Positions 1 through 64,000 of a stretch of DNA of 64,000 bases are shown here, in pieces. Position 1 is the stretch's first letter; each line of letters begins with the position of its first letter. Origin of the DNA: Okamejei kenojei (Eukaryota); assembly GCA_035221665.1 (NCBI GenBank), contig CM069169.1, positions 17,360,001 to 17,424,000 of the forward strand. The letters run 5' to 3'. A program made the position numbers and the translations under genes. The notes below the pieces were generated by a model, which worked only from the letters and a program-made list of their open reading frames with translations, had not been told where the DNA came from and ran no database searches.

Positions 1-1459
1 GAGGTGTTTCCCTTTTATTTTCAATCTGGTCTTTTGTTCTGTTCATTTGTTGCAACATTATTGTTTTTATTTCAGTTTTAGCTTGCATTGCACCCATATT
101 TCTCAAATAAAATCTCAGTTGAGGCAAGCTGGTGACTAATTTGAAGGCTTCAGTTATTTTGGTCCATGACTTTAGACAATTAGTATATATTGCTAATGCG
201 CATTTTATCTACGCTTTTAGCATAATTTCTGGATATTTGCGACATGAATGTCTTATCCATTTGTTGAGTGGTCGTAACCTCAAGATAAATGAGTGGCATT
301 ACATGATTATTCCATGCATTAGTGAGAAATTAGAATCCACTTGCTTTATGAAGTGCAAGATCAATTTGCTCAATTTATTGGATTGAGAATAGTGTATGAC
401 TCATCGTTCAGAAGTCATTTTTTTAAATGCTAAATTAATGCTAATTTAATGCTAAATTAGCTCCTTTAAGATTTTCTGAGAGGAGATAATGGATATTCAG
501 CAATTTCTGTTGTTTGCTTCTTAAGTTTGTTTGTTTCAACTGTTTTATCAGCCAGTTGCTCTTCTATGGAAGATGTTAATTTCTGTTGTGTGGGAATCCA
601 ATCATCAAATTTATTTCTGATGGAAGGTTTGAGTGGACATTGTGATTTGTGATTACTTGTGTGTTGATCATTTATTTAATCATGGATTAAATCTGTATGT
701 AAGCATAGCTTCTTGTATCTTTGTTGCTCTAGCATAAACAAGTGATTGTTGATTATCTCACTGAATGCTCAAAAAAAATGTTGAAAGCTTCTTTTGAAAA
801 TAAGCCAAAAATAATATTTATGTTAGCTGTGGAGCTGCATAAAAGGCAATGTAAAATTATAACTTTTAAAGAGAAGATAGCCACTTGGCCCTCTGGGCCC
901 ATGATACATTTTATGAGAAGAATCAGTTATTCGTGTTCCATCTATTCCTTTTTCTCCAGAAATGCTCTCTGATCAGCTGAGTTACTCCACCTTTTTGTGT
1001 CTATTCTTCCAATATTGCACTTTGTTTTACATTTATCTTGCTTCATGGCTATTTGTTGCACAAATATTTTTATTTTAGTACAGATTAGATTTTTTCCTTT
1101 TGGTTCGTCTACCAACAACCTTTAATGTATGGCTCTCAAGCCATTGACAAATGGGATGTTCTTTCCTTAGTTATACCTTTGACTTAATGATTTTTAACAA
1201 TTTATTGAAATTCCTCTCAACTCTTTATTCTGATAAGCAGGTATAACCCCTCTCAGTATTCTTTGCTAAACTCTTCTATTGCAGATGTTTCTATTTCCAA
1301 AGAAGTTCAGTAACCGACTTTGGTAGTTGTTGGCTTTGGTCTCTGAATCCTGATACATGTACTGATTTGAAACTTATTAGATTTGATCATAAATCTCTGT
1401 TGAATGGTAGATGAAATGATTTGATTGTCCTGTGGTAAAGTTGTCAATTGCTTTCCTGC

Positions 1460-2930
1460 GAAGATAGACACAAAGTACTGGAGTAACTCAGCAGATCAGG
1501 CAGCATATCTGGATAGAAGGAATGAGTGATGTTTTGGGTCGAGACTCTTCTTCAGACTGTCAGCGGAGAGGGAGACACAGAGATAAGGAAGCGTAAGATG
1601 TGAGAACAAGACATCAAAGGGGATGTAGATCAAGGAAAATGTAGAATAGATCATTGTTAGCTAGGAGAAGCTGACAAGGAAGCATACAGAGATAACATTT
1701 AATCAAGGGGACAGTCAGACTGGTCGGTGAACGAGGAAGGGGGAGGGTTCGAGAGAGAGGGTAAGCAAGCAAAGGAAAGCAAGAGAAATAGAGAAGTCAA
1801 TATTCATACTGCTGAGGTGTAAGCTGTCCAAGCGAAATATAAGATGCTGTTCCTCCAATTTGTGCTGGGTCTCACTCTGACAGTGGAAAGGTCAGAATGT
1901 GAGGGAGAGTTAGTGTTCAGCAACTGTGAGATCAGGTAGGTTTAGGCAGACTGAGTGGAGGTGTTCGGCAAAACGATCGCCGTGCCTGCGCTTGGTATCG
2001 CCATTATATAGAAGTCCACACCTGGAACAGCGGATACAGTAGATGAGGTTGGATGAGGGGCATGTGAGCCTCTGCCTCACTTGAAAAGACTGTTGGGGTT
2101 CTTGGATAGAGTCGAGGGATGAATAGGGATAGGTGTTGTATCTCCTGCAGTCATAGGGGAAGGGGTGGTTTGGGTGGGAAGGGACGAATCTCTGTGGAAA
2201 GTGGAAAGAGTGGAGGTGGGAAGATGTGGCTAGTGGTGGGATCCCATTGGAGGTGGCAAAAATGCCAGCAGATTACATGCTGTATGAGACGGCTGATGGG
2301 GTGAAAGATGAGGACTAGGGGGATTCTTCCTGTTGCGACTGGGGGACGAAGAGCAAGAGCGGAGCTGCGGGATATCGAAGAGACCCTTGTGAGGGCCTCA
2401 TCTATGATGGAAGAGGGGAACATCCGTTCCCCAAAGAATGAGGATATATCAGATGTCCTGGAGTGGAACACCTCATCTTGGGCGCAGATGCGTCGTAGAC
2501 AGTGGAGTTGGGAGTAGCGGATAGAGTCTTTGCAGGAGGCAGATTGGGAAGAAGTGTAGAGATATAGCTGTGGGAGCCAGTAGGTTTATAACAGATGCCA
2601 GTTGAAAGTCTATCTCCTGTGATGGAGATGGTGAGATCAAGAAAAGGTAGGGAGATGTTGGAGATGGTCCAAGTGAATTTGAGTGCAGAAAGGAAATTAG
2701 TAATGAAGTTAATGAAGTCCGTGAGTTCTGCATAGGTGCAGGACGTAGCCCCGATGTAGTTGTCAATGTAGCGGAGATAGTTCGAGGATAGGGCCAATGT
2801 ACGCCTGGAACAGGGATTGTTTTATGTACCCTACAAAGAGGCAGGCATAGCTGTGGCCCATACAAATGCCCATGGCTACTATGCCTTAGATTTACAGGAG
2901 CAGGGATTGTTCGACTTGCCCTACAAAGAA
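1460..2930 (-). mobile_element. Penelope-like element, 5'-truncated and decayed: RT C-terminal part, GIY-YIG endonuclease and pseudo-LTR
   Basis: Minus-strand frames give YLRYIDN and LPFLDLTISITGDRLST..YKPTGSHSY (PLE-type RT). They are followed by GIY-YIG-like sequence at about 1950-2080 and the pLTR at 1460-1560. Confidence 0.88.
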
Positions 2931-4043
2931 TCTGGAACAGAGAGTCTTGAATTTGTTCTTCTGCATTAGTTTTTCAACACCTTCCATGCCACGATTTGGT
3001 GTGGGTCTGCAAATATTAAATCCTATGGTACTTTGACAAAATGAGCATTCCCTGTGTAAGCTTAAGTGCAAAATATTGTAAGATTGAGCTTTTAATGTAT
3101 ATCATACCTGATTGCAAATCTGTACTTGTCCAAGATATCTCTCTACTTGCAAAACGTGTTATATAAAGTCAATTAATTGTTGTTGAGTTTCATATTGGCA
3201 AGCTTTCCTGCATCGATAAGTGAAGAAAAAACAGGTTTTGGAATCACACCATATTTTCATTTCATGGAAGGAGGCCACTTCAACTGTAGGTCTGACCAGT
3301 AAATAGATGATAGAATAGGCAACACATCGAGGATTTTAATGTTATATATGTGATAAACATATTCACAGGTTGTTGTGCTATGAGCCGAGTAGTAGAGCAG
3401 TCTCTCTTTTTAAAAAATTACTCTGTATGCCGTTGCTTCAGAAAATCAAACACAACTATCCTCAAAGTGGTGCAAATGGTGAAATATGGAGCCAAAAAAA
3501 CAAACTGTAGAAGCAACTCCGCAGGTTGGGCAGCATCTGTGGATGCAGAGGGATAGTTGTTTCTGGATGACACCCTACATTAGGACTGGCAATGTATGGG
3601 GGAAATCATCGGTGTAAGGGGGTTAGGGTATGAGCTGACAAATAAAAGATGGAACTGGGTGGGAAGGAGATGGTGGGTAGTTGGAACAGGAGTGGAGCCC
3701 TTGGTCTCTGAACACACTTTTTCCTTTGTTGGATAAAGATACATTAGAGGTGAATTTTGTTATCGATGTCTGTTACCTAGAAGGATGTCTGCTGAAGTTT
3801 GGAAAGTGATCCACATTTACAAGATTTTCGTTATTCATTTTCACATGTCATTGCTTGGAGAGAGGAAGGGAATGCAGCATTTTCCTAAAGGAACCGGTTT
3901 CCTTTTTGTTCTGGAAGCTAATTCCACTTCAAGAGGAAACTTGTTGGAGGTAAAGCACAATATTGCTACAAAGAAGATTGAGAAGAGGGGTGGTGAAATG
4001 ATATGTCCGTGTCTCAATTCTATGTTGTAGAATTATAAAGTAG

Positions 4044-4869
4044 CAAGTGGCGGCGCTGCCTGGCAGCTGTGGCTCACCTGCAGTCCGTCTGTTTTTATTT
4101 TATTTTTGTCTTTTTGTGTCTGTTTTAGTGATAATTTTGGTTTATTAGGCTGTGTATGTGTGTGGGGGGAGGGGTGGGGGTGGGAGAAACAGGGTTTTAG
4201 TCTCTCCCTTCGGGGGGATACGACTTTTCTTGTCGTATCCCCCGTCACAGTTTCTGTCTGTGCTGAGACCATAATGGCGGAGCTGGCGGCCTCGGAGCTA
4301 TGGCGGCCTTCCAGCTTCCAGCAGCGGCGGCACGGCTTCGGAGCTTCAGCGGCGACCTGACTTCGGGGCTGCGGTGCTCCAGCGGCGACCTGGCTTCGGG
4401 GCTGCGGTGCTCCAGCTGCGACCTAGCCGTCGGGGCTGTGGTGCTCCAGTGACATTCCAGGGGCGACCTGGCTTCGGAGCTGTGGTGCTCCAGCGGCGAC
4501 CTGGCTTTCGGAGCTGCGGTGCTCCAGCGTTCCAGCGGCAGGCCCTGTGGCGGTGTTCCGGCATTCCGGCGACGGCGGTGGCGGCAGCCTGGCTTCGGAG
4601 GCTCGGCCGCGGGCCTGGTGGACGGCAACATCGGAGGCCTGGATCTCCTCAGCGCAGAGGGAGAACAAGGAGGGAAGAAGACAGAGACTCTAAGACTTTT
4701 GCCTTTCACCACAGTGAGGAAGTGCCTGGTGAACTCACTGTGGTGGATGTTAAATATGTGTTTATTGTGCGTTTTGTTTTTTTATTATGTGTTATGACTG
4801 CAAGGTAACAAAATTTCGTTCAGACCGAAAGGTCTGAATGACAATAAAGGATAATCTAATCTAATCTAA
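4044..4869 (+). mobile_element. GC-rich non-autonomous retroposon (SINE-like) with internal minisatellite and Rex1/Babar-like 3' tail
   Basis: Abrupt CpG-rich island ending in aatttc-hairpin-tgacaataaa plus (ATCTA)3, the same tail architecture as the Rex1-like LINE ending near 9095. Confidence 0.65.
4348..4525. repeat. 33-bp minisatellite, about 5 copies (agcggcgacctggcttcggggctgcggtgctcc)
   Basis: Units are directly visible at 4348, 4381, 4414, about 4459 and about 4492. Confidence 0.9.
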
Positions 4870-4962
4870 GTATGGAAAGATCCAACTGAACTGGCACAAT
4901 ACATCAAGCATCCAACCTAGTTGATACTGCTTACGTTCCATTAATTCTCTTCAGAGTCTACT

Positions 4963-5135
4963 ATGGGCAATTTCAATTTATCCCATCCAAACTCTTTGGG
5001 GTGTGGGAAGAAACTGGAGTATTTCGAGCAAATCCACACGGTTGCAAGGAGTACATACACTATACGACAACCCCAAGGGTCTGGATTGAATCTAGATTGC
5101 TGAAACTAAGGCAGCATTTCTTCCACTGGTGCCAC
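4963..5135 (-). mobile_element. HE1-like V-SINE fragment
   Basis: Reverse complement has a tRNA-like head (gtggcac..gtggaa) and the V-domain-like ctccagtttcttcccacacccc. Confidence 0.6.
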
Positions 5136-5253
5136 AGTCTCGACCTGAAACGTCATGTATTCCTTCTCTCCAGAGATGCTGCCTGTCCCCTGAGTTACTC
5201 CAGCATTTTTTGTCTATCTTCAGTTATACCAGCATCTGCAGTTCCTTCCTACA
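5136..5253 (+). mobile_element. Penelope pLTR-derived short element (hammerhead 5' half lost)
   Basis: gtctcgacctgaaacgtc...gctgcctgtcccctgagttactccagca...cagcatctgcagttccttcctacaca. Confidence 0.85.
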
Positions 5254-5954
5254 CAGGCCGAGTGAAACTTCTTTATGGGTTCCCTGAATCCTTTAAAATT
5301 GTTTTTTTTTTTTGCAACATTTCTGTTGTTGTTTGGGAGCTAAATGGATAGAGTTTACAGATGGGTTAGACAATGTGAAGAAAGGAGGACAGGAGAAAGG
5401 ATAAACAGTGGTCAATCCAATAGAGATTCACAGCTGTCATGTACGAAAGCACAGGCGACTGCAGATGCTGGAATCTGTAGCAAAAAACCCCAGCTCAGTT
5501 GGTCAGGCCATATCTTTGGAAGGAAAGGAATGATTAGCTTTTTTTAGGCAGTGGGGCAAAGGTTCAGCAGATTGACACATAGGGTGAGGCCATCCCAAGA
5601 GATAAGCCCACTGGACCTGCCAAAGCAGCCCGCAGAAGAATACGGTTGAATCTTATTCAAGTGTACCAAATTCTTGAGGGGCTTGGCAAGGTGCATCTTT
5701 TGGCAAGTTACCCGTGGCAAGTTACCCTTGGCAAGGTTTATTGTGCCTAGGGTTTCCAGAATAAGTGATCAGCCTCAAAATAAGGAGTCAGCCATTCTGC
5801 AAATGCAAAGTTTTATTTTTCACCCAGATGAAAGTGCACTTTTGGAATTGTGTTGAAGAGGGATGAAGGCTAAATTGCTGACTGTTCAAGACAGGAATTA
5901 ATAGATTTTAGCTATCTTGGTTAATACAGAGAAACAGCACTGAGATAAAAAATA

Positions 5955-6071
5955 TGTTTAAGAAGGAACTGCAGATGCTGGAAAATCTCAGGTAGACAAA
6001 AATGCTGGAGAAACTCAGCGGGTGATGCTGCCTCACCTGCTGAGTTTCTCCAGCATTCTTGTCTACCTGAG
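5955..6071. mobile_element. Fold-back pLTR-derived element (about 39-bp arm palindrome, 5987-6071) inside a decayed CR1 end
   Basis: ctcaggtagacaaaaatgctggagaaactcagcgggtga pairs with tcacctgctgagtttctccagcattcttgtctacctgag. Confidence 0.85.
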
Positions 6072-8174
6072 GTAAAAGATAGGTATTATCTTATAAGGAT
6101 TATTAAACAATGGAGCTGAATGGTCCACTCCTACTATGTTCTTGTGTTTGCTTATAATTTGTAGCCGAGTACAATCAATGGAAGGGGTTTTGCAGGTGAA
6201 TGGATTTTTGAACTAAGTTTTTATGTTGTTGAGGGAGCATCCAGTGAAGACTGGTGTATAATGGAAATTGCTCTTTATCATGGATGGGTGTGTGATGGTG
6301 ACACAGGATCTAATTATAGTGTGAGCAGCATTTACGTGGGTCATCCAGAAATATCTGAAAACTTCCGGTTGTAATGCCATTGTTATATAATGAGTTCAAT
6401 GTCAGCATGATTTTTTTTTTTGGTGCATTGTGCACACAAAAAATTATCAATGAATTTGCTCAAGTTGCTTTATTACTTAATCGCTTTCCACCCTATTTTC
6501 TCTTTTACTATCACATTTTTTCCATTTCTGGTATTGATCCACCTTGTGCTGTCCTTTGTTTTGTCGGTCTGGATTCAGTTCTCATTTTTCTTTGATCGGA
6601 TCTCTGGCCCATTGGGGGAAAAAAAGTGAATTGCAGAGAACAGTTTATTGACCAGTATAGAGCTGTTAGAGCTCTATAAACAATAAAATTGTATAGGGAA
6701 CAATTTGATTTGGTTTCAAAATATTAACAGTGCAAAATCGCTCTAATTGCCACATCAGAGATGATTAATGTTTCTTCCTCCAGCATGTTAAACTTTACAA
6801 ACATTCAACACCTTTTTTGTGAAGAAATGTTTATTAAACCATGACCATGTTCTTACTTCATGCAGTTATGCTGAGAAGTGATAGCTTGAGATATGACTTG
6901 CCTTTTTATGTCTGTTGTATGTTGTAGCTTGAATTGATGTAGGATGTGATGATCCTCAACTGAGAATCTTGCTTTGCAGTGATATACAGCCCCGGGCTTT
7001 GCTTCCTCATGCATGAGTTTGTCCTCGTGCCCGAATTCTGGTGAAATTGGCTGCAAATAATCACTAAAGGTAATCTAATTTTGTTAAGGGTTGTGTGTAT
7101 CTCTGCAAACAGTTGGAGTTTGTTGCTGAACAATCATCCTTTGCTGCAATTTCATTTTTATTGATTGTCAGACAAAAGCTGCCTGAAATGCAAATTAGCT
7201 TTTGTCGTCATTGTCAAATAGTAAATAATTATTTAAGTATCTTTAGTGGACAAATGCCCTTGCTTCATTCTGAGTTTTTTTTCCATCCAGTCCTTGCACT
7301 TTCAAAGATTGGTCATCAGGAAGACATTTCTTCTGGGAGCTGAAGCTATTGTCCAACCTCATTAAGGGTGCCGCCTGCTGCTGAGATCAACATGAGCTTA
7401 ATTGTTACAGTTGTTATCAGATTTGGAATGATCTTGTGTGCATGTAGCTTATTTCTACTTTGCCATATATTTTGCTGCTTGAAACATGATCTTAAAAAAA
7501 AGTTAGACGTTTTTGAAGCATGGCCTACACGTTTCATCTGGTATCTTTCTTCTCATTCAGATCCCAAAATTTGTCTGTTTCTATCTTTTTGTGCTCAAGA
7601 TGTTGAATTTTTGAAAACTTCCTTTGAAGTTCATGTTCAGCTTAAATAAAATTGGTAATGAATTTGCCCCAAGTGTTTAAGAAATGCATGAACCCGATGC
7701 ATAGTGTGTTTTGGAACAATGGTTTTGGTAGCCAGCAATGGCTTCACTTTTCTCTATTACATAATTGCAACAGTGCAACAAATAACCTATGTTTTCAGGA
7801 ATAATCAGCAATAATGTCCTAAAATTGGTGCAAGAAAGTCCAATACATTGATAAATTGGCTATGGATTTTTTGTTTTGGTGGTTATTGGTATTTTGGGTT
7901 AATTGATGACCAAGTACGTTTCAAATCAATTAGCTATGAAAATGTACCCACATGGAGCAAATTAGTTGTACTGTCATTTAAAACACTGCTGCAAAATATT
8001 TGAGTTCTTAATCATAGTGATCTTATAAGAACTGAAGGATAATATCTTACAGTATCTGAATTGATCTTTATACTACGCAAATGGAATCATTAAGTCATAA
8101 ATGATTCGTAACATGCCCACTAAAATAAAATCAAGCAGCGGTTTGCACTGATCCCATTTTATTCCCCCCTCATT

Positions 8175-8368
8175 CCCATCAATTCCCCTAGATTCAACCG
8201 CTCACTTACACGCCTGGGTCAGTTTAGAGTGGCAATAAACTATCGACCTGCACGTATTTAGGATGTGGGGTGGGAGGGGGTGGAACCTAATGAAACCAAT
8301 GTGGTCACTGAGAGAATGTGCAAACTCAAAGCAGACAGCATCAAAAGTCAGTATTGAACCTGGGTTGA
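8175..8368 (-). mobile_element. HE1-like V-SINE fragment
   Basis: gagagaatgtgcaaactc..cagacagca..attgaacctgggt is the reverse of the B-box and V-domain-like region. Confidence 0.6.
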
Positions 8369-8414
8369 TATCCTCTGAGTATTTTGTAAGCCATTATATG
8401 GCATTGCATAAACA

Positions 8415-9095
8415 TTGACTACAGTTCGGCATTTAATACATTCATCCCCTCCAAGCTGGTTACCAAGCTCTCAGAATTGGGTCTCTGCGCATCCCTTTTT
8501 AATTGGATTCTCGACTTCCTCATCCACAGACCACAGTCTGTTCGTATTGGTGGAGATGTCAGCCTCGATAATAATCAGCATGGGAGCACTTCAAGGCTGC
8601 GAGCTCAGCCCCCTGCTGTACTCACTCTATACTCATAACTGCATAGCCGGTCATAGTGCGAACTCCATCAAGTTCGCCGACGGCACCACTGTTGTGGGAC
8701 GTATCACTGATGAAGAAGAGTCCGAGTACAGAAGTGAGATCGACCGACTGACCAAATGGTGCCAGCACAAAACCTGGCTCGCAGAACCAAGGAACTGATT
8801 GTGGACTTTGGAAGGGGTAGGATGAGGACCCGCAGTCCCGTTTATATCATACGGGTCGATGTTGAAAAGGGTCAAGAGCTTCAAATTCCTGGGCGTGCAT
8901 ATTTCCAAAGATCTCTCCTGGTCCCAGAACACTGATGCAATTATAACAAAAGCACATCAGCGCTTCTAATCAATGGTATATGGACACACTGATCTGTTCT
9001 GTATTTATTTATGCCTACAATATTCTGCTGTGCTGAAGCAAAAGCAAGAATTTCATTGTCCTATCTGGGACACATGACAATGAACTCTCTTGAAT
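8415..9095 (+). mobile_element. Rex1/Babar-like LINE, decayed RT fragment with 3' tail
   Basis: [27 protein letters not shown] and KFADGTTVVGRIT motifs; 3' end gaatttcattgtcc..gggacacatgacaat. Confidence 0.8.
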
Positions 9096-10599
9096 CAACC
9101 CATTAATGTTTATATCAGTACACCGCTGAATTTGGAGAGAATTTTGGTTTATATCCTTCCTTCGATTATAGTCTGGCGTATTGAGGTCTGTGAAGCAACA
9201 AATTAATCAATTAAGGATTTAGAATGGGATGTTTGTTATCTTTGTTGAGATTGTGTTTCAGCTTGGGATTGTTTTCAACATGATGGGCCCATGTCCCATA
9301 TCACCATATTCATATTTACTCTTGACTGCCAATGTAGATTTAGGGCTAAGTACGCCTTGCTTTCACTCTGCTTTTAGCTCACAAGCCCAATGTCGGAACA
9401 GCAGACTGACAGATAGGGCAAGAGATGTTCAATTGGCCAGGCAGCGAGAGACCATGGTGCTGTACTATGTGTTTCATAGGCCTGCTGTATTATCCTGATA
9501 CTTGGAGTTTCTCCATATCATCCTAAATGCTCATCTGATTTTAGTGATCAAGGGCTAGAGGTTTGCTGCCAGCTTTGGAGATTTGTTTGAAGCTTTGAGC
9601 ACATACTTGAATCTCTTCCTCTGTCAGCCTGTAATCTCTTCTCATGATTAAACTCAGAATAAATGTGAACCATATGATTTATCCTGTGACAAGGGCCATG
9701 AGAATTTTGTAAAGGATATAAGGATTGTATCCATCTTTTAGGGTGCAGAGACAAGATCTCAAGAGGCAATGAGAAAAGTGGAATCATGACAGCCTACTAG
9801 ACTTCTTGTTTTCTGCCCTATCTGTTAACTTAATCTTGGTGATTATTGATTCTCCCATTCTCACAGCGCCTTCCCCCGTTAGTATGGAAAATGAAACCCT
9901 TTTTACCTTTCCCATCATTCAATAAACCAGTCTTCCCAATGTATTAGCTATTCACTTACACTTCATTCAGTGTACTGCATTCAGCACTCTCACTGTAATC
10001 TTCCTCTACACTTGAGACACTAAATGCAGATTGATAACCATTTTGCAGTCATCCTTCTGTTCCATTGGCAGGAGCTTGAGTTTGCATTTGCCTTTCAATT
10101 TAATTCTCCATTTCTGTCCCACTTTGTTTTCAGCCTCCTACATTGCTCTACTGTAGCCTCATACAAGAGTGAAGTACAGCACTTTGTCACCCATTCAGCA
10201 TTTTGCAGCTACCTGGGCTCTGAATTTTAACATTATTTTAATTTTATATGATCAGATGTCAGCTATAGCCGTTATCAGTTTTTCTTTCCTCTATAACTGC
10301 CATTTTTTGGTGCAGGTTGCTGTTTTAACCAATTTTGTCTGTGCCCTATCACAGATATTCCCTCTGTTCTTTCCCCCTCCCCCTCTTTGCAGCTTAAAAC
10401 TGATTTGTTTTCTAATCATTCCAGTTCTGGTGAAACGTCCTTGACTGGAAACAGCCTTTGCTGTTTTTGTTGGTTGTTTGGGATACTATTATTGTATTTC
10501 AGAAGTTGGATGGGTTGGTACCAAGTTAAAATATTAGTGTACAAAATGGTTTGCAAACCAAACAGAACTCTTAAAAGAGCAGCAGTGTTTGACTGGGGT

Positions 10600-10691
10600 A
10601 CACAAAAAGCTGGAGAAACTCAGCGGGTGCAGCAGCATCTAGGGAGCGAAGGAGATAGGCGACGTTTCGGGTCGAGACCCTTCTTCAGACA
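10600..10691 (-). mobile_element. Solo pLTR-derived element with 17-bp TSD
   Basis: cagtgtttgactggggt at 10583-10599 and 10692-10708 flanks the element. Confidence 0.9.
10661..10690 (-). ncRNA. Minimal type I hammerhead ribozyme motif (PLE type), intact core
   Basis: Minus strand reads guCUGAAGA-a-GGGU-cucg-ACCC-GAAAC-GUC; palindromic ACGU stands in place of helix III. Activity not shown. Confidence 0.7.
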
Positions 10692-13014
10692 CAGTGTTTG
10701 ACTGGGGTTGTTTTCTATCAGTTTTGCAAATGATAAACCAATTTCTTAAGTATATTCAAAGATTGCTATATTTGAATAGGTGACATTTTGAATTTGGTTT
10801 CTTAGGATGGGAAATAAACAATGAAATAAAAATCAGGAAAATAAAAGGTCAAGCTGCTGAAGCCGAACTGAACAATAGATTCACATATTTGCTTCCTTTG
10901 CAATTGTTTCTGTTTTAGTAATTTGTATTGTTGATAGGAAGCCAGTGTACTAAAGGGTGAGGAGAAAGGAATAGACTGCTATATATGGTGCATCTGGAAC
11001 ACCGTTTGTTCAAAGGGACTGTCTGTATCATAGTTTCCTGATTAGTGCTCTCAAAAATAAGTCCATTCCTTTCAGTAACTTTTTTGTTATTCCAAATATA
11101 AGCTTCTTTACAAATTTACTGTAAAGTGCAATGAAAAGATCAGTTAGACGTCCACCCACGTCGTAGCTTTAGTTAGTTACTGTGTGTATGCAACTCATGC
11201 TCATGCAGTGTTTTTAAGATAGATTTGTGCTGTTGAGCAGCCGCAAGCAGTGGTGGGCAAAACCACAGTGTTGGAGGAACTTTTTGGGTTAAACAATGGG
11301 AATGGACAAACAATGTTTCAGGTCAGGACGCTTCTTCAGACTGAACAGGCTGTGGTAGGGTTGAGAGAAAATTGGTCCGATCGAGGTAGGCGTGTGTGTG
11401 TGTATAAACACGAGGCAATTGGTAATTGCGAAATATGGTTTTGTTGTACAAATGGTTCTGCAATTAATCATTTTTACATCATTAATCAGCTCTAATGTAT
11501 GTTGATGATTTGGGGAACACTATTTATATATTGTGGGCCAAATAGGTTATGTACATATATAGTGATGTATCGATCAGAAGATGCAAGAGGCTGGAACTAG
11601 AGAACCATTTAAAAGCTCCTATGGAAATTGACAAGCAGGAAAAAAAGCTATCTTGAAAAAATATTTTTGGGATAAAAATAAGTCTCCACAGTATTGGATA
11701 TCATTGTCACTTAAGAACACAGTCTCAGTTTCACTGGAAGTGGCCATTGAATTTAACAAGCGATTGCAATGATACTCTTAAATAATGCAACCGTTAGTAT
11801 TTTAACTTAATTTGATGTGGAAGCTTGTATTAAACTGGTATCAACTGCCCCGTGTTGTGATACAGTCCCTGGTGTGAAATTTGTTCTGTTTATTTGGTGG
11901 TCTTTGGGGCAGGATTCAGGTCTGTTTGTCTCCTCTCTGGTATCAATAACTTCTGAAAGAATAATGAATCTTGCCAATGCACTTATTTTTAAGAGATTGA
12001 TTAATACCCGATTTCCTCTTGGAGCGAAAGATGGTCAGATTGATAGTTTAACACTTTTAACAAGAGGTCGGATGAATATGTTTATACATTGTACTGTGTC
12101 CTGTGCATGCACAATTTGAGCTTTATAATGATTCCTGAGTTTTTTGGAGCTGTGGGAATATTACAAACAAAGCATTTTTTCTCCCATTGAAATCTAGCAC
12201 AGGTAAAAAAATACTGGCAGTCATTGACTACTTCAGGGGCGTTAGTTTGCTGGATGATTGGGATAGAGGCTACTACGGCTGCAACGGGCCTTCATGGGCT
12301 GCTGCTGCTTCAACTGTGAAAATGACGTCACACCTGCGACTTTTGTCGCAGGTGGGCTATTTCTATATACTTTGTACTCAATCTGGGGTTGTGCTTGTGT
12401 ATAGTAATGCATTTAATGAACTGTATGCAAAAATAATTTCACTATACCTCAGTAGATGTGATAAAAAACCATTGGACCATTCGATTAAATTGGGTAGGTT
12501 GGCAGTATCTATCGCAGATATGTTATCTGTCTCCTTTGTTACAATTGTTTCCATGAGCTGGAAACAAGTCATATTAAGATGAATAGCTTCAGTGGATGAT
12601 GCAGTTTAATATACCATGATCTTAATTTATAAGGACAAAATGTTCCCTTTGCTGTCATTAGTAACTAAACATCCGTACTTCATCCTTGAGTTACACTTAA
12701 AACAAAAACATTGGCAGATCTAGGGTTAAATATTGTTCTGACCAAATAATTATTGTAGATTTCTTTGTTTTGATGGTCTTTAGCAGGGGTTTGTACAGCA
12801 ATTTTTTTTTTTTTTTAATGACCATTAGTGAGATCAGTTTGAACTGCAGATTCATGGGATTACTTGGGTGCCAGTTCTCTAGGGGATGTAGAAGTGGACA
12901 TTATTATTGCATGAGTTAATCGATAAGCAATTTGTAAATTCCGACCGACTGACTGATGCCCATTTAGATGGCATCTTGCATCTGGCCTCTTCCAGCCTGT
13001 CACCTAATATTGAG

Positions 13015-13109
13015 TGTAGACATAAATGCTGGAGAAACTCAGTGGGTGAGGCAGCATCTATGGAGGGAAGGTAATAGGCAACATTTAGGGCCGAAACCCT
13101 TCTTCAGAC

Positions 13110-13143
<34 letters not shown>

Positions 13144-13756
13144 AAGAAAGAAAGAAGAGGTGGAGCCAGTAGGCTGAGGGAGAGCTGAGGAGGAGAAAGT
13201 AAGGACTGCCTGAAATTAGAGAAATAAATGTTCGTGCCACTGGGGTGCAAACTGCCCAAGCGAAGCATGAGGTGCCTCCTCCAATTTACGATAGTCCTCA
13301 CTCTGGCCATGGAGGAGGCCGAGGTCAGTAAGGTCAGATTCAGAATGGGAGGGGGAGTTGAAGTGCTGAACCACCGGGAGATCAGGTTGGTTATTGCGAA
13401 CTGAGCGGAGGTGTTCGGCGAAGTGATTGCCAAGCCTACGCTTGGTCTCACCGATGTAGAGAAGCTGACATCTAGAGCAGCGGATGCAATAGATGAGGTT
13501 GGAGGAGGTGCTGGTGAACCTCTGCCGCACCTGGAAAGACTGCTTGGGTCCTTGAATGGAGTCAAGGGGGGAGTTGGAGCAGCATCTATTGCATTTCTTT
13601 CTTTACCCCCCCCCCCACGCTCACATCAGTCTGAAGAAGGGTTTTGGCCCGAAACATTGCCTTTTTCCTTCGCTCCATCGATGCTGCCTCACCCGCTGAG
13701 TTTCACCAGCATTTATGTGTACCTTTGATTTTCCAACATCGGCAGCTCCTTCTTAA
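13015..13756 (-). mobile_element. Penelope-like fragment: GIY-YIG domain between inverted pLTRs, 13-bp TSD, internal poly-G
   Basis: ORF 13216..13530 reads RQRFTSTSSNLIYCIRCSRCQLLYIGETKRRLGNHFAEHLRSV. pLTRs at 13015-13110 and about 13600-13756 are inverted. acctaatattgag occurs at 13002 and 13757. Confidence 0.92.
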
Positions 13757-17699: not shown

Positions 17700-17830
17700 G
17701 TGAGAAGAAGGGTCTTGACCCGAAACGTCACCCTTTCCTTCTCTCCAGAGATGATGCCTGTACCGCTGTGTTACTCAAGCATTTTGTGTCTACCTTCGAT
17801 TTAAACCAGCATCTGCAGTTCTTTCCTACA
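17700..17830 (+). mobile_element. Solo pLTR-derived element with 10-bp TSD
   Basis: catttcccat at 17688 and 17831; hammerhead CUGA is mutated to GAGA. Confidence 0.88.
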
Positions 17831-19893: not shown

Positions 19894-19966
19894 GTCTGAT
19901 ATCATGAAGAAGGACTGGTCCTCTGTGTGGATGTGTTATTAGTGCTGATGGCACAACTGATCCAAT
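19894..19966 (+). promoter_or_regulatory. MYO9A: 5' UTR portion of the first coding exon, containing upstream ATGs
   Basis: Pyrimidine-rich acceptor ttctgtttgttgtattttag ends at 19893. Upstream ATGs at 19904, 19931 and 19948 precede the main ATG at 19967. Confidence 0.7.
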
Positions 19967-20809
19967 ATGAATGTGCATGATGTTGGTGGAAGACGACGCT
20001 GTGAAGACAATGAATTTACACTACGGGTATACCCAGGGAATATAGCAGAAGGCACCATTTATTGCCCTGTCGCTGCAAGGAAAATCACCAGTGCAGCAGA
20101 AGTTATTGAAATTCTTATTTACAAATTACAACTAGAGAAGACAAAATGTTATGTCTTGGCAGAGGTGAAGGAATTTGGTGGGGAAGAATGGATACTCAAT
20201 CCAACCGACTGTCCAGTACAACGCATGATGCTTTGGCCACGCACTGCCTTGGAAAATAGTTTCAGCAGTGAGGACTATCGCTTCCTGCTTAGAGAAAAAA
20301 ACCTTGATGGTTCTATTCATTACAACAATCTGCAGTCATGGCTGAGGGTGACGGAGGAGCGGCGGAGTATGATGGAACGGGGTTTTTTACCTCAACCACA
20401 GCAAAAAGACTATAATGATCTGTGCAATCTACCAGACTTGAATGAAAACACACTTCTGGACAACCTGCGTAATAGGTTTAAACAAGAGAAAATCTACACT
20501 TATGTTGGAACAATTTTAATTGCCATAAATCCTTTTAAATTTCTTCCTATTTACAACCCCAAGTATGTAAAAATGTATGATAATCACCAACTGGGTAAAC
20601 TGGAGCCCCATGTATATGCTATTGCTGATGTGGCATACCATGCCATGTTACAACGCAGGAAGAACCAATGTATAGTTATTTCGGGCGAGAGTGGCTCAGG
20701 AAAGACACAAAGTACAAACTTCCTGATCCATCATCTAACTGCTTTGAGCCAGAAAGGATTTGCCAGTGGAGTGGAGCAGATTATTCTTGGAGCTGGACCT
20801 GTGCTAGAG
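19967..20809 (+). CDS. MYO9A: MYO9A exon 2 coding part (281 aa): RA domain and start of motor domain with P-loop
   Basis: ORF 19967..20827 is myosin-IX-like up to GAGPVLE, then the donor GAG|gtaaga at 20810. Confidence 0.97.
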
Positions 20810-22089
20810 GTAAGATGCATCACATGATTTCCTCTTGAGGGAATGGAAAGAAAACCATCCTTGAAAATGAACAGCTGTATTGCTTTATTTTTGTTTTATG
20901 GCAAATTCTCCATGAAGCAAGTACTGTAATGCAGTTTGTGAGACATAGTTTACCAGTGCATCTGGTGTTAAAAAATCTGAAACTCAAGCTGACTAATCAA
21001 TGTAAATGTGCATCCCAGGTGCCTAGAGATTCCTCAAATCTTATTTTACCGTGCCCCATGTCAGAAAATGTAGTTTATGGTCCAACTCTCTCACTTGTCA
21101 TTATATTTGGAAAGAGTGAATAGAAATAGCAATTTTCACATTTGTACCCTACCGAGGAATATATGCTGGTCCTCCAAATTTTAAATTGAAAACCTAGGAT
21201 TGGATCTATAAATGGCACAGATTATTTTGAGGGGGTTTAAGGCTGTGTGCTTCAAAGCTTTATGTACGAAGAGCTATCGGGTATTCTTCACTTCCCCCTC
21301 TCTCAAAGATCTCAGATAGAATTTATTACGAAGTGCCTATATTGGTTGTGCCTATACTGATTGACAATCTTTGATGGTTTAAGAACAGGAAGTGGCTGTT
21401 TATTGCAATAAACAGCATTTTGCAAGATCTCAATCAGGTTATTTAAAGGCGACTTTGGTTTATTTTGATTTAATATGAAGTAATGTCATGCCCCTTTCCT
21501 CCATTTTGAACATAAAATAGATCACAGTGGTCAACCTTACGGAGTCGAGTCTATTTCTTCCATTAGAAATGCCCAGTCTCCTCAATTGTCAATTTAATTG
21601 CCATATCCTTCAATCCCTTCCCTTCCAAAGGTCATTTAGGTGCATCATTGATACACTAATACAGACTAAATTCCTGGTTATGATATAACTTAATTCCCTG
21701 CAGTTTGTTCCACTTAATCATGCACCCCGAGTTGAATTCGAATACTGAAGTTCTAGCAATGTGAATGATAATTCAGGTTCAAGTTCACATTTATTGTCAC
21801 ATGCACCAATTAGTGCACAGTAATATTGGAGTTACCATGCAGCCATACAATTAAAGAACATAATACATGATAGAACTTAACATAAACATCCACCACAGTG
21901 ATTACTGTGATGGAAGGCAATAAAGTTCAGTCAGTCTTCCTCCTTTTGTTAAATTGTTAAATATAGTAAATATTCCAGGAACAATTATTGTATTTTTAGG
22001 AAATTTTGTGAACACAATTCTCCCTTGATAAATCAGAAGTAAAATGATTCCGACTTGTACAGAATGATGTACCAGTGCATCACAGACCT

Positions 22090-36020: not shown

Positions 36021-37052
36021 CAGTCAGTTTCCGAGTACATTACACGCACAACTTCCATCTTGTTATCAACCTAAATAATTGCACTGACATCTTTACCTTT
36101 GTGCTCAAATCTTTTGGGATTAAGGTCAACATATCATTTGCCTTTTTAATTGCTTGGTGCATCTGCATGTTAGTCTTCATTGTCACGGACCCTACAGCAG
36201 TGGTTCAGACAGGTGCTCACCACCACCTTTGCAGCGATTTAGTAATGGCTGATAAATGCTCACCTTTGCATGCAAGTCAGATCTTGAAGAATTGAAGAGA
36301 AAAAATATGTAGACTACCACCATCACTACCATCACTTCATCTGTTCGTCAGCAAATGTACCCTGTTTGGCTCTCAACAACAAATAAGGCAATTGACATTG
36401 CGTTGGCTTACTGTTTTGTAACTGAAGAGACACTCTTTTTGGCCATAGGTTTATCAGTCACTGCTTCTATATGGGGAAATGCTGAATTGTCTCCAGCACT
36501 TGCAGCAAAGGAACGTGGCATGTGATGAGTGGGTATATCAGATTGATGAATACTGATTTCTTACTTGATTTCTGTGGCAATAAGCTGAACTACTTTGAGC
36601 AGTATGGGCGTGGGACTAACATCAGAAATTCAAATATTTGTTTAAACAAGTCGAGGCATTGTACTTGAGTTAAACAATGGAAAACAAGTTAAAGCCAGAT
36701 TAAATATCACTTGGTGACTGGATTTTGACATAATTAATTCCATTGGTATGCATAGTTAGTGTACACAAATCAGAAATCATTGCTACAGTATAACTTAGAA
36801 CATTCTGAAGGTTAGGTCTGAGAAACTGCCACGGTATTGATTCTGATGCTTTCAATAATTGACATTTACAAAACCATCCCTGTGACGTTTTCAATCAACT
36901 TCTTCCCCCTCAGTTGTTGCCATCCAGAATGCTCTGTGGAATGCAGCATAATGTTTAGAGCACTGTACTTTTATTACAGCAGATACATGAACCATCAAAG
37001 ATGATTGTATGAGATTCTTATTGTTTACTCAGGCATATTTACTGCTGGAAAA

Positions 37053-37640
37053 GGTAGATACAAAATGCTGGGGTAACTCAGCGGGACTGGCAGAGTTACT
37101 TTCTGGAGAGAAGGAATCAGTGACGTTTTGGATCGAGACTCTTCAGACTGATGTCAGGGGAGTGGGCTGAAAAGAGATAGAATGTAGTCGAAGACAGTAA
37201 GACGTGGGAGAACTAGGAAGGGGGAGGGGATGGAGAGAGAGGGAAAGCAAGGACTATTTGAAGTTGGAGAAGCCAATGTTCATACCGCTGGGGTGTGAGC
37301 TACCCAAGCGAAATATGGGGTGCTGTTCCTTCAATTTCCAAATACCGCTGGACAATTTGCCTGGTTTGGTTATTTTGTTGGTATTCATTCCCTTGGGTAA
37401 ATATTTCAAAATTCTACAGACGTATAGAAATACAGAGGGTACACAAAAGGCTGGAGAAACTCAGCGGGTGCAGCAGTATCTAAGGAGCGAAGGAGATAGG
37501 CGACGTTTCAGGTCGAGACCCTTCTTCAGATGCTGGTTTACAAAAAAAGTAATTCAGAAGAAGGGTCCCGACCTGAAACATCACCTATCCGTGTCCTCCA
37601 GAGATGCTGCCTGACCCAAAGATCCAGCACTTGGAGTCCT
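37053..37640. mobile_element. Cluster: pLTR plus Penelope 3' fragment (37053-37345), second pLTR with intact hammerhead core (37438-37530, minus strand), third pLTR in opposite orientation (37555-37640)
   Basis: Homologous to 1460-1860 and 10600-10691. The minus strand at 37502-37529 reads CUGAAGA-a-gggucucgaccu-GAAAC-GUC. Confidence 0.85.
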
Positions 37641-37944
37641 TTTTTTCCAAAATACTAGCCCATTGTAATATTATTTCTGTTGTAACCCTTTTGAGACATT
37701 ATCTTCCACCATAATATAGTGAATGCTTCAATCCCTACTTTTCTCTGTTCAATGATGAAGTTAAGAGTTCCTGGTCACTGAGAATTCCTCATTGTGATTA
37801 ACCAGCTTGTCTACCTGATGGTGTTGCCGTTGTTAAATGAAGACCTGTCATCCATGATTTGTCACCTGATAACCAATGTAAGGAATTCATGCCAGAGATA
37901 ATGACAGATCTTTACAATCCAAGTCAGCACTAAATACCATCGAC

Positions 37945-42279: not shown

Positions 42280-42412
42280 AATAGTCTGAAGAAGGGTCCC
42301 GACCTGAAATGTCAATAGTCTGAAGAAGACTCCCGGCCCGATATGTCACCTACATATATTTTCAGAGATGCCATCTAACCCGCTGAGTTACTCCAGTACT
42401 TTGTGTCTTTTT
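42280..42412 (+). mobile_element. pLTR-derived element with tandemly duplicated hammerhead motif (2 x 34 nt)
   Basis: aatagtctgaagaagggtcccgacctgaaatgtc followed by aatagtctgaagaagactcccggcccgatatgtc. Confidence 0.85.
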
Positions 42413-42492
42413 TACACAGTAATAACGTTTTCTAGTTGTATTATACTTCATTAATCATCTTTTTCCCTCTCCTACCACTTCGAGATAGATAA

Positions 42493-45628: not shown

Positions 45629-45709
45629 GTAGACACAAAATGCTGGAGTAACTCAGCGGGACAGGTAGCATCTCTGGAGCGAAGGAATGGGTGACTTTTC
45701 TACAGAATC
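45629..45709 (-). mobile_element. Truncated pLTR-derived element with 13-bp TSD
   Basis: ttggatattggtg at 45616 and 45710. Confidence 0.85.
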
Positions 45710-47335: not shown

Positions 47336-47573
47336 AAGATGGACAAAAAATGCTTGAGTAACTCAGCACGACAGGCAGCATCTCTAGAGAGATGGAATGG
47401 GTGATGTTTCGGGTCCAACCTGAAGATCCAATCCACATTCAGTCTGAAGAAGGGTCTCTGCCCGAAAAGTCACCTATTCCTTCTCTCCAGACATGCTGCC
47501 TGTCTCGCTGATTTATTCCAGCTTTTTGTGTCTATCTTCGGTTTAAACCAGCATCTGCATTTCCTTCTTACAC
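47336..47573. mobile_element. Inverted pLTR pair with about 16-bp flanking repeat
   Basis: acccacatccaacctg (47320) and acccatatccaaactg (47574); near-intact hammerhead motif at about 47444. Confidence 0.88.
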
Positions 47574-47898: not shown

Positions 47899-48030
47899 TG
47901 TAGGAAGGAACTACAGATGCTAGATTAAACCCAAGATAGACACAAAAAGCTGGAGTAACTCAGTGTATCATAGAGCATCACAGGAGAAAAGGAATAAGTG
48001 ACGTTTTGGGTCGAGACCCTGCTTCAGACA
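47899..48030 (-). mobile_element. Solo pLTR-derived element with 9-bp flanking repeat
   Basis: acataattg at 47890 and 48038. Confidence 0.85.
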
Positions 48031-48228
48031 CTTCTATACATAATTGAATGCTACTGCAACAAATGCAGATGTGCATAGCTTTCCCTCACTGTTTTTGTTG
48101 ATTTGTTCTTTGTGGTTTGCCCAGAATGACCTAAGAGTTCCTCTTTGTCACCATATTACAGGAATATGTTTAGCCATCAGTAATCAAGAATTTGATTACT
48201 TTGATTTTGATTTTGAAGATTGCAAACT

Positions 48229-48630
48229 GACCTCCGCTCAGTTCGCAATAACCAACCTGATCTTGCGGTGGCTCAGCACTTCACCTCCCCCTCCCATTCC
48301 GAATCTGACCTTTCTGTCCTGGGCCTCATCCATTGCTAGAGTGAGGTCCATCGCAAATTGGAGGAACAGTACCTCATATTTCGCTTGGTTAGTTTACACC
48401 TCAGCAGTTTGAACATTGACCTCCAATTTCAGATAGTCCTTGCTTTCTCCCTCTTTCCCCTTACGCTCACCCTTCCCAGCTTGCCCACAAGCCTACTGTC
48501 TCCACCTCTTCCTTTCTTTTTCCCGCCCCCCCCAACATCACTGAAGATTGGTCTCGACCCGAAACGCGCCTATTCCTTCTCTCCAGAGATGCTGCGTCAC
48601 CCAATGAGTTTCTCCAGCATTTTTGTCTCC
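48229..48630 (+). mobile_element. Penelope-like 3' fragment (end of GIY-YIG ORF plus pLTR)
   Basis: Reverse-orientation homologue of 13015-13410: ctccgctcagttcgcaataaccaacctgatc ... EEQYLIFRL. Confidence 0.88.
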
Positions 48631-49181
48631 CTAAGATTTATCATTTGGAAAGAGGCAATCCACATTTAACTGTAAAAGATCAACAGTATATGGAATTAAA
48701 ACAAAGCTACACAAGCACTGGAATGTTTCTCATTGATTAAAACAGTAGTTATATCCCCAATATTGTAGTAACAGCAGAACCACTCCCTTCCACTTATTTC
48801 CCTACCCCAAAATAGCCTCATGAATCCTTGCGATTGCTTTATTTACTGACTCATACGAAGATCTCGGGTGGTTGCCTCATATACTGCAAATAGTGTCATT
48901 TACACAGAAATAAAAATTTCATTCCAACTCGTACATGCCTTCCAGAGCCTGTTGCAGTTGCAAATACTTGATCCACAACTCTCTAAACTTTTGTTTTCCA
49001 TGAACCTTAAAAATGCCTTTTAAACATTATAATTGTACCTGCTTCTACCACTTCCAATGCATATATCCATCACCTTTGTTGAAAAACATTGCCCACTTAT
49101 GTCCACTTTAAATCTTTTCCCTCTCATCTTAAACCTAAACTCCCCTACAGTGGAAAAAAGCCTGTGATCATCCACGGTATC

Positions 49182-51795: not shown

Positions 51796-52119
51796 AGTGG
51801 ACAATTGTCAATAGACAATTGGTGCAGGAATAGGCCATTCGGCCCTTCGAGCTATTATTGGGTGATCTCCACTGAGTTGCATACCATTTACATCAATGAC
51901 AGGTTGGGGAAAGTCCAGTTACTTCGGCAGAGAGAAGTGTGTGTGAGCTTAAATGTTCCAGTAACCTGCTGTCATTCTCTTGAAAAGAATGCAGAGCAAC
52001 ATTGGTGAAATCAAGGGGGTGATTTATGTGCTTTGAGTACAGGGCCTACTAATCTATTGAATTCTAAGACAGAAAAGTACCCTGAGTATGATTTTATTTT
52101 AATTATGCTTTATTTACAG

Positions 52120-53812: not shown

Positions 53813-54008
53813 TGTGTAGGAAGGAACTGCAGATGCTGGTTTAAACCGAAGATAGACACAAAATGCTGGAGGAACTCATTTGGGACAGGCAGCATCTATG
53901 GAAAGATGAAGTCTGAAGAAGGGTCTCGACCCGAAACCTCACCCATTTCTTCTCTCCAGAAATGCTGCTTGCCCCGCTGAGTTACTCCAGCATTCTGTGT
54001 CTCATCTA
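53813..54008. mobile_element. Inverted pLTR pair with perfect 14-bp TSD, 57 nt downstream of the exon 9 donor
   Basis: ctgtgaatgggaaa at 53799 and 54009; sense-strand CUGAAGA-a-gggucucgaccc-GAAAC-CUC at about 53913. Confidence 0.92.
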
Positions 54009-61251: not shown

Positions 61252-61464
61252 AAAGATAGACACGCAATGCTGGAATAACTCAGCGGGAAATGTAGCATCT
61301 CTGGATAGAAGGAATGGGTGATGTTTCGGGTCGAGAGCCTTTGAGGGGTCTCGACCCGAAACATCACCCATTCCTTCTATCCAGAGATGCTGCCTGTTCC
61401 GCTGAGTTATTCTGGCATTTTGTGTGTCTACGGTATAAACCAGCATCTGCAGTTCCTTCCTACA
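61252..61464. mobile_element. Fold-back pLTR pair (about 85-bp arms) with 12-bp TSD, inserted in a CR1 3' end that continues to about 61790
   Basis: caggaacaggcc at 61240 and 61465; arms meet at gtttcgggtcgaga-gccttgagggg-tctcgacccgaaac. Confidence 0.92.
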
Positions 61465-63149
61465 CAGGAACAGGCCCATCAGTTCACAATGTGCAGAGAT
61501 TGTTGCCAAATTAAACACATTCCTTCTTTCTGCCTGTACGTAATCTGTACCCTCCATACTCTGCATATCATGTGCTGATCTAAAAGCCTCTTAAATGCCA
61601 CTGTCGTATCTGCTTCCATCGCCACCTCTGGCAATACATTCCAGGCACCTACCACTCTCTGTGTAAAAGGAAACTTGCTCCGCACATCCCCTTTAAAGTT
61701 TCCCCCTCTGACCTTAAAGCTATGCCCTTTGGTATTTGACATTTCCATGCTTAGAAAAAGATTCTGACTCTCCTGTTTATGCCTCTCATAATTAATTATA
61801 CTATATGTGATTGAATATATTTTTTTAATACTGTCCTTGTTCCTTTGGTAAGAGACAATATCTTATTTAAATGTTTTCCACTCGTGCTTCATTGGAACTG
61901 TTTCATACTGAAGCTGTTCTACCAAGTGCCACTTTAAGGAAAAATGTGACAACTGGATATTGGTACACGATTATTTTAGAAGCTATTTAATACTAGTGTT
62001 CACAATCCTCGTGGCTCTGTGCCAACAATTCAAACAATATTGTTTTTCTTCAATGTTCTGTTCCTTCTACGGTCACACACAAAGTGAGATTTTTATTTCT
62101 TTCTTGTTGCATTACCGGAGATAGTGTCACATGAAGTGTTCCATGAAGCAGCAGCCGACATTTCAGGTTCTTTGTTTTGTTGTTCAATAAGCTGCAATTT
62201 TTGCATTCAAATATTACAGAAAGTCTTCTGTCTATTCTTGGTCAGCTGCTCCTGCATTGTAGGCATGCCCTGCGAGTCAATCTGAATGAATTCATTCATC
62301 AGGCAGCATTGCATGAGGTACAGTCATACTCTCCTACAATTAGATTATAAAGCAGACATGGCTACAGCTCTCAAATTTAAACTGCAGCTAATTATTAACC
62401 ACTCTTTCGGGCATTCTTTCATGTTCCTTGTTCATAATTGAAACCGTCTCAGAGGATCTTTAGACTTCTATTTTGCGGCAAAGGTTTGTGCAATGTTTTC
62501 ATAAAACAAAAAGTGAACATTTATCCTGAGATATTACAATTTTACCCTGTCAGGAGAAGCATGGAGAGGAAAATAAGATTAATTTCTCTGACAAAAACTG
62601 GAAAACAGATATTTGCATCTCCCAGCAATTAATTCTTGAATAAAAGCTTTGAAAATGCTTGAGATAATCAGCAGGTTGGGCAGCATCTATGGGAAGAGCA
62701 GTGGTTAATGTTTCAAGACGATGATATAGAACCTAGGATGAACCTAAGACGATAGAGAACAGCACAGGAAAGAGCCCTTCTTGCCCACAGTGTTAGTGTC
62801 AAACATGCCAAGTTAAGCTGATCTTACAAGTAAAAAAGTAGATTTTGAATTTTTAGCATTTTTAATATCCCAAAATAATTTTTAAAGTATTATTTCACTG
62901 TACCTCGGTACACATGACAAACCAAACCGAACTGTTAATAAACTAACACGAGACAATAAACTAAACTGGTCAGGCCCTTAAATAGGTAAGCAGCTTATAG
63001 GACAATAATTTGCCATAGACACCAACAGCAAGGAATGATATGCATACCAGCGTATTTTGGTCCATAAAAAATAGCACTGTGGACAATAAATGTTGACATT
63101 TCAAGCAACATCCATCTCGTGAATTAACAATAAAGATACTTGTACATTG

Positions 63150-63235
63150 GGCCTCAACCCTAAACGTCACCCATTCCTTTTCTCCGGAGATGCTGCCTGT
63201 CTTGCTGAGTTACTCCGGCATTTTGTGTCTATCTA
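63150..63235 (+). mobile_element. Solo pLTR-derived element
   Basis: gggcctcaaccctaaacgtcacccattcc...gctgagttactccggcattttgtgtctatct. Confidence 0.82.
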
Positions 63236-64000
63236 CTTGTACATCGAAGGATGTGAAGATGTACAGACAAGATATGCATATTTAAACCACATGTCCACCC
63301 TTATTAACAGTACTGTTTTGATGTTGAAGCATAGATTGTGGAAGCATGTATTCATATCACAGTGTAGGATAAGCCATTTTCTTTGCATGATGGCTTGGAC
63401 ATATTGATTTCCCTCATCACACATCTACCATGATGTCAGTTGACAATTGATTTATCAGTACAGTACTGAGCCAAAAGCCAAGAAAGTGCCAGACTGAATT
63501 CCCGACATATATCAGCCCACCTACGTTCAACAGCATCTGCAGTTAAAATTCCAAATTGTTTATTGCTTTACTCAGTATGGATCTGCACATGGGCAGCAGT
63601 AGCATACATAAATTTTAGTTACTGTATCAGAATGATGTACTTTAAAGAATGTAAGATGCTTGTTTCCACTATTACTAGCTTTCTCAATTCTCTCCCAAAA
63701 AAAAACAAGTGATCCATCATTGCACTCAAGGGAAGTTCTCTTTGTATGTTGTAATTTAAAAATTTCAAGATCAACATTCATGAGGAAGTGAGAAGTGATA
63801 TATTTAGTGCATAACTAATAAGATGACCCAGTTTATAATCCTCAAAATGGATTCATCTCAAAGCTGCAAGGACATAGTTGTGAATATTTCCTTTCTGGAA
63901 TTTTTAACCTACATGCACAACCGACCCATCAACAATGTGAATTTCAAACTCTTTGGATTCTGTTTAAGTCACAGTGTTGCTTTCCTCCTCTGTTTTAGCA

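Follow-up and report, generated by a model that had tools for sequence, protein, structure and literature searches.

Short hammerhead-bearing repeats of Okamejei kenojei as putative terminal modules of a Penelope-like element

The short hammerhead-bearing repeats of Okamejei kenojei are best read, going by their sequence, as the terminal module of an autonomous Penelope-like element (PLE) and not as a separate non-autonomous family. We argue with moderate confidence that the short copies (stubs) are such modules pasted singly by the parent's own enzyme, and that they were cut short by run-off at an RNA start lying before the hammerhead. The initial annotation of the window, the whole stretch of 64,000 nucleotides analysed here, had proposed a separate retrozyme-like family. 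That proposal fails, since 90 of the 91 bases of the insert at 10600-10690 match the last 91 bases (the 3' end) of L112, an intact element of this genome, and solo and extended copies are indistinguishable by sequence.

The class itself is already known: ends of PLEs that carry minimal hammerheads and are scattered as truncated copies. The value of this case is as a test system: the vertebrate parent is intact and was active recently, and the stubs, about 1 million of them, are dated. It predicts precisely that the RNA starts at +1 and that priming takes place at +96/+129 on uncleaved template, and it bears on the origin of PLE pLTRs and the role of their ribozyme. Our search of mainly open-access literature found nothing on this unit family or on a pile-up of 5' ends at its edge.

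The parent element

L112 and L109 each keep an open frame of 1,197 codons with RT and GIY-YIG domains. In L112 both domain matches (RVT_1, E 5e-6; GIY-YIG, E 0.004) are below the Pfam cut-offs. The protein has 1,697 homologues at E<=1e-20; of those that are named, cartilaginous fishes supply the most similar (64-75% identity). A CxxxxCxxC linker sits at aa 1064, between the YIDD of the RT (aa ~844) and the EN (aa ~1113). In the available parts of PMC8557442 and PMC3846280 this motif between RT and EN is a mark of the Neptune/Nematis PLEs, so by its Cys linker the parent appears to be of that type.

The layout is a variable 5' repeat, the unit, a 33-base tail, the ORF, the 3'UTR and the unit again, with a monomer of 3,955 bases. 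Full elements were located through protein searches, and pLTRs of 246-898 bp are found in all five that were examined. The parent shares with the EN+ PLEs of the same two sources a single ORF with RT and C-terminal GIY-YIG, a partial-tandem pLTR, an inverted 5'-truncated partner copy, an optional tail (30-40 bp there), heavy 5' truncation and TSDs. It differs from those descriptions, as far as their available parts go, in its ~1.3 million end units, ~4% of sampled bases, and in the sharp pile-up at the edge.

Two other features of these elements deserve mention. A long Pro/Ser/Ala-rich low-complexity N-terminal region (L112:4300-5190, ORF aa ~180-470) makes the ORF longer than any of the 120 homologues listed (search scope <=1,045 aa). 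One long young copy (L023:5306-5335, minus strand) opens with a 29-base piece of the unit head joined to mid-ORF, inside a 16-bp TSD. This joint is likely a template switch.

The insert at 10600-10690 and its hammerhead

Features of the window are collected in Table 1. Unit positions are numbered from +1, the A of AGUCUGAAGA. The predicted core consists of CUGAAGA, an extra A, helix II, GAAA, a palindromic ACGU and the GUC triplet. The initial annotation had described this copy as having a perfect 17-bp TSD and an intact core, and the unit as a minimal hammerhead derived from a PLE pLTR. Both descriptions stand: the flanking repeats are identical, and the core boxes, extra A and palindrome are confirmed.

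Table 1. Unit copies, element fragments and parts of the 10600-10690 insert in the window
Feature	Position	Strand	Remarks
Decayed PLE fragment: RT C-terminal part, GIY-YIG, 3'UTR, unit (1463-1558)	1463..2879	-	tblastn
TSD, 17 bp, element's 3' side	10583..10599	.	
Solo insertion of PLE terminal unit, young subfamily	10600..10690	-	unit positions +2 to +92; 91 bases
Stem-loop region just inside short 3' end	10609..10640	-	conserved among subfamily consensuses; folds
Minimal type I hammerhead core, predicted	10661..10688	-	from sequence; features as in available part of PMC4209133
TSD, 17 bp, element's 5' side	10692..10708	.	extra base at 10691
5'-truncated PLE: GIY-YIG end + unit (13013-13110)	13013..13602	-	
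Inverted tail-bearing unit near the preceding fragment	13628-13756	+	
Tail-bearing solo unit	17700..17827	+	10-bp TSD
5'-truncated PLE end: ORF C-terminus + unit	37043..37337	-	6-bp helix I variant
Head-to-head pair	37429..37645	.	minus arm 37429-37530 is second young full-core copy
Solo unit truncated inside ribozyme	45629..45700	-	13-bp TSD
Head-to-head pair	47338..47569	.	14-bp direct repeat around minus arm
Tail-bearing solo unit	47902..48029	-	9-bp TSD
5'-truncated PLE end: ORF C-terminus + unit (48541-48637)	48217..48637	+	
Head-to-head pair, one arm with tail	53818..54006	.	
Head-to-head pair, one arm with tail	61255..61461	.	
Solo unit	63149..63238	+	11-bp TSD

The unit has the traits of PLE minimal hammerheads: the core boxes, the extra base at 9/10.1, the G10.1-C11.1 pair, and a palindrome (positions 15.2-16.2) that replaces helix III. 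Like them, it occurs mostly as single motifs of truncated PLEs or as opposite-strand pairs. Cervera and De la Pena (PMC4209133, in its available part) likewise describe minimal motifs that mostly occur singly and probably derive from truncated PLEs. In coelacanth and Xenopus 4,000-9,000 motifs have been reported, far fewer than the copies here, although detection methods differ. The helices are shorter too. Helix II of the insert has 4 bp plus a tetraloop (10669-10680) as against the usual 7-8, and helix I has only 2 bp. Set against a criterion of 4-5 bp, helix I offers a proximal 2 bp (87% of cells paired, with U-A/U-G exchange), and a possible distal 2 bp would need bases upstream of +1, which the stubs lack. 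The hammerhead fold of the monomer comes to -4.2 kcal/mol while the MFE is -9.0. Rfam gave no hammerhead match at gathering in the window and none at E<=10 on the parent pLTR. Minimal hammerheads are reported to cleave as dimers (Lunse et al., via the available part of PMC6765202).

The stem-loop at 10609..10640 is a predicted part of the structure at which the RT starts; covariation lent it no support.

Copies in the window and across the genome

Searched with a profile, the window yields 43 units. The earlier count of about 30 was low; all 14 positions it listed were recovered, but the copy at 940 has no core. The 11 core bases plus H17 are kept in only 7 of the 43, and core, helix II and palindrome together in only 2. 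Twenty are arms of head-to-head pairs, which qualifies the view that most copies are solo, and 5 are joined to upstream element sequence. Many copies had been credited with their own TSD, but a strict script scores one for only 7 of the 43, one of them a tandem duplication. The four Penelope fragments said to link GIY-YIG to the unit are confirmed by tblastn with the parent ORF. The longest (1463..2879) is 59-74% identical to ORF aa 807-1194.

The window also holds a large exon of a myosin-IX-like gene (19961-20827, plus strand; RA domain and myosin head) and GC-rich tandem repeats with long open frames on both strands (4033-4808). Fragments of another RT-bearing non-LTR element, which we take to be CR1-like, lie on the minus strand at 26147-26953 and 50785-51807 (RVT_1 matches).

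An exact 48-mer of the unit has 19,392 genome-wide matches and its reversed control has none, which rules out chance. Sixty evenly spaced 10-kb stretches contain 279 units, ~4.2% of their bases. Scaled from this density to a genome of 2.76 Gb, there are ~1.28 million units (bootstrap 1.07-1.51 million). Among 351 evenly sampled units, 138 belong to head-to-head pairs and 33 extend upstream. Two younger subfamilies had been named in the initial annotation. One of them, 'ggagaaactc', is indeed 2-3% diverged, but 'ggagtaactc' is ~10% diverged and so is not young. The two oldest subfamilies are 15-22% diverged.

Young copies reach into the ORF in 68 of 136 cases in the first 10.7 Mb of G000:C1 and in 3 of 24 in the evenly spaced stretches. 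This regional difference may reflect loss of long insertions or sampling. Positions ~37-92 of an old-subfamily unit (the stem-loop, without the hammerhead) have also become a 54-bp minisatellite that forms tandem arrays (L132, L140, L151/L152, L157 and L159-L164, at 0.3-4.3 Mb of G000:C1; e.g. L160:2420-3422).

Parent ends or an independent family

It is worth considering how an independent family would look. It would have its own short sources and RNA processed by the ribozyme. Most units do lack upstream element sequence (the 33 of 351 above), their ends are fixed, and solo copies of all ages have a TSD in 40 of 230 cases as against 0 of 230 in a swapped-flank control. The metazoan non-LTR retrozymes, in the available parts of PMC7229834 and bioRxiv 10.64898/2026.07.22.740005, are likewise protein-free, with a type I hammerhead, PLE pLTR ancestry and long TSDs. 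They are also tandem units of 150-450 bp (51-972 bp) with mostly canonical hammerheads and circles running from cut to cut. The units here are instead dispersed parent ends, single or head-to-head, that start upstream of the cut.

The sequences do not separate solo from extended copies. In the young sample (98 copies; 99 were found and one duplicate locus was dropped) the haplotypes stand at 13:5 in short and 35:16 in long copies, with no site significant. Two older subfamilies gave no diagnostic site either, with 156 solo and 51 extended copies in one (permutation p 0.17) and 31 and 16 in the other (p 0.44); no site in them survives correction. Among 407 cores there are 7 close direct pairs (within 140 bases) and no tandem arrays of hammerhead cores. 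No 5'-end peak falls at the cleavage site, with 2 of 197 ends at +30..34 and 2 of 458 at +32. Two apparent signals nearby were rejected. A peak at +37 is mostly the 54-bp minisatellite, and a bump at +35 consists of 5 young copies, of which two are the arms of a single pair; it lies too far off the cut, and is too small, to mark cleavage.

With no separate lineage in the young and mid-age subfamilies, no core arrays and no peak of 5' ends at the cut, the unit is not a retrozyme. Its boundaries are not those that ribozyme cleavage would set, the head-to-tail hammerhead tandems of retrozymes are absent, stubs lack the upstream bases that could extend helix I, and once inserted the cores decay no differently from other positions. 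The independent-family reading is largely refuted for the young and mid-age subfamilies. In the two oldest subfamilies independent short sources are possible, as ORF-linked references are only 3 of 143 there. Overall we consider an independent family very unlikely.

3' ends and priming

The 3' end falls at +93-98 in 144 of 261 young copies and at +126-134, which takes in the PLE 'tail', in 83. Both ends are common to short and ORF-linked copies. TSDs were scored for 62 of the 261 and are 9-25 bp long with a mode of 14. Mobilisation by the Penelope RT/EN had been proposed before, and we agree that each copy is a separate insertion by the PLE RT/EN.

The available part of Frangieh et al. 2024 (PMC11167929) shows that priming by a lizard PLE is internal, at two sites which mark the limits of the tail; the element uses uncleaved RNA, and its ribozyme cuts only with the protein. 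The two 3' ends here match these two RT starts. As in PAc Poseidon of Anolis (same source), they are ~33 bases apart downstream of the hammerhead, and there is no sign of cleaved RNA as template. The PAc Poseidon ORF starts inside the ribozyme, whereas here the open frame begins right after the tail, with its first Met ~170 bases past +1.

5' ends and the front edge of the ribozyme

Among 197 young copies selected on grounds other than the ORF, 69 begin at -1..+4, six bases at the front edge of the ribozyme. Counted as stops, these 69 among 163 copies at risk give 0.071 per base, and the rate elsewhere is 0.0017-0.0032 (22-40x lower). Because two of the three samples required the opening bases of the unit, stops within the unit are missed there, whereas upstream stops are still counted. 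The edge share is 15/24 in the evenly spaced sample and 18/37 and 48/136 in the others (p 0.0016). In a separate count 29 of 98 5' ends fall within 8 bases where ~2 are expected (p ~1e-26).

The initial annotation had allowed that copy lengths might be fully explained by random 5' truncation. Ends upstream of the edge do spread smoothly to -1,619, as they should if the edge were not special. Both the clustering and the stop rate at the edge contradict this, and for the young subfamily plain random truncation is refuted by the stop excess. We give it almost no credence.

What makes the edge? An untemplated G is a trace of the cap in work on LINEs. A preceding G is seen in 14 of the 25 copies that start at +1/+2 and in 17 of 92 upstream truncations (p 5e-4). 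Both counts are of copies without an inverted partner, and the second leaves out 18 in which the parent itself has G as its next base. The figures for TSD-anchored copies are 7/10 and 2/12 (p 0.03). Against a cap trace, nearly half of the +1/+2 edge copies have no preceding G. The edge sequence CCAGTCT is initiator-like and fits the initiator consensus YYANWYY. Five short direct duplications restart at ~+1 from donor points at +25 to +44, as if the RT jumped from a template end. Penelope of D. virilis has an internal promoter in its pLTR (available part of PMC2377424). From the pile-up, the G excess, the initiator-like site, this promoter and the restarts we infer run-off at a capped RNA start, following internal priming.

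The parent's own enzyme would then insert terminal modules of 90-130 bases one at a time. The PLE protein would nick the target and prime internally at +96 or +129 on uncleaved RNA, as the biochemistry of the Anolis PLE suggests (PMC11167929, available part). If the element RNA has its capped 5' end at ~+1, priming in the 5' unit would yield stubs of 92-130 bases. The mere 2 of 197 stops at +30..34 are consistent with uncleaved RNA as the substrate. Longer copies and full elements with their long pLTRs would need templates longer than the unit: read-through, tandem or circular RNA.

It must be noted that several observations go against run-off. Of the 30 copies that carry the ORF start, 24 run past the edge and 6 stop there, five of these at +6/+7 and not at 0..+2. 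All five full elements examined have longer pLTRs. Run-off predicts that tails are enriched in edge copies, but they occur in 23/76 of these and 28/88 of longer copies (p 0.87). The edge share differs between samples, and the edge is also a pyrimidine tract plus YAG.

One can imagine a fuller scenario with two templates. The ~1 million stubs would be run-off of the capped 5' mRNA leader, with the RT priming in the first terminal repeat. The full-length copies with variable pLTRs would come from a 3,955-base circle cut by a hammerhead dimer to which both terminal units of a single transcript contribute. We regard this combination as possible but doubtful. If it is true, the genome preserves a record of where transcription begins and of a life cycle in which Penelope-like elements use two templates.

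Another scenario keeps the same parent but has a fold or bound protein at the front edge stop the RT on longer templates. RNAfold pairs +5..14 with the tail end at +119..128 (p>0.8), which would bring +1 together with the start site at +129 at the base of one stem. The 6 of 30 ORF-bearing copies would have stopped at the edge on a second pass, and the equal tail frequency in both classes fits a roadblock. It does not explain the G excess. The pairing is predicted, and the tested helices do not beat shuffles. The tail is also absent from half or more of the edge copies. A roadblock seems unlikely to us.

The edge could also be the 3' splice site of a pLTR intron, with stubs made from splicing intermediates or spliced RNA. 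A pyrimidine tract and YAG do precede the unit in the ORF-linked copies shown, and the D. virilis intron ends at helix I, abutting the hammerhead (PMC2377424, available part). Spliced copies should share an upstream exon, but none of 88 young edge copies does; the 9 direct joins are all different. Most edge copies keep the G, AG or CAG of the would-be intron. The contig joints shown include no recurrent GT-AG joint, which counts weakly against splicing as well. We consider splicing improbable. Run-off at the RNA start is the reading we keep.

Conservation and folding of the ribozyme

It had been asked whether the core is any more conserved than its flanks. Across 12 k-means subfamily consensuses the core varies at 1 of 11 positions (a CpG-decay cluster) and the adjoining linker at 13 of 20, so in that comparison it is. 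The downstream stem varies at only 8 of 33, which means that conservation is not unique to the core. Intact core, helix II and palindrome survive in only 23 of 165 evenly sampled core-spanning copies. We also considered selection on cores after insertion and rejected it, as base-matched decay goes both ways (A 0.049 vs 0.075, G 0.064 vs 0.071, T 0.072 vs 0.047). With no consistent core protection and so few intact copies, selection likely acts on source elements only. The ribozyme would be selected there and be a passenger in the stubs.

Folding predicts that the core pairs with the tail end. Covariation gave no support, with only 3 pairs from RNAalifold on 27 decayed copies, and neither the named structure nor the tested helices beat shuffles.

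The restart duplications consist of a partial unit followed by a restart at ~+1, which leaves two cores 29-44 bases apart. They are seen at L061:6207-6340, L077:4823-4856, L151, L190, L202 and L217, and at 42283-42414 of the window. A joint resembling them occurs in contigs of two organisms. These duplications are possible natural dimer substrates.
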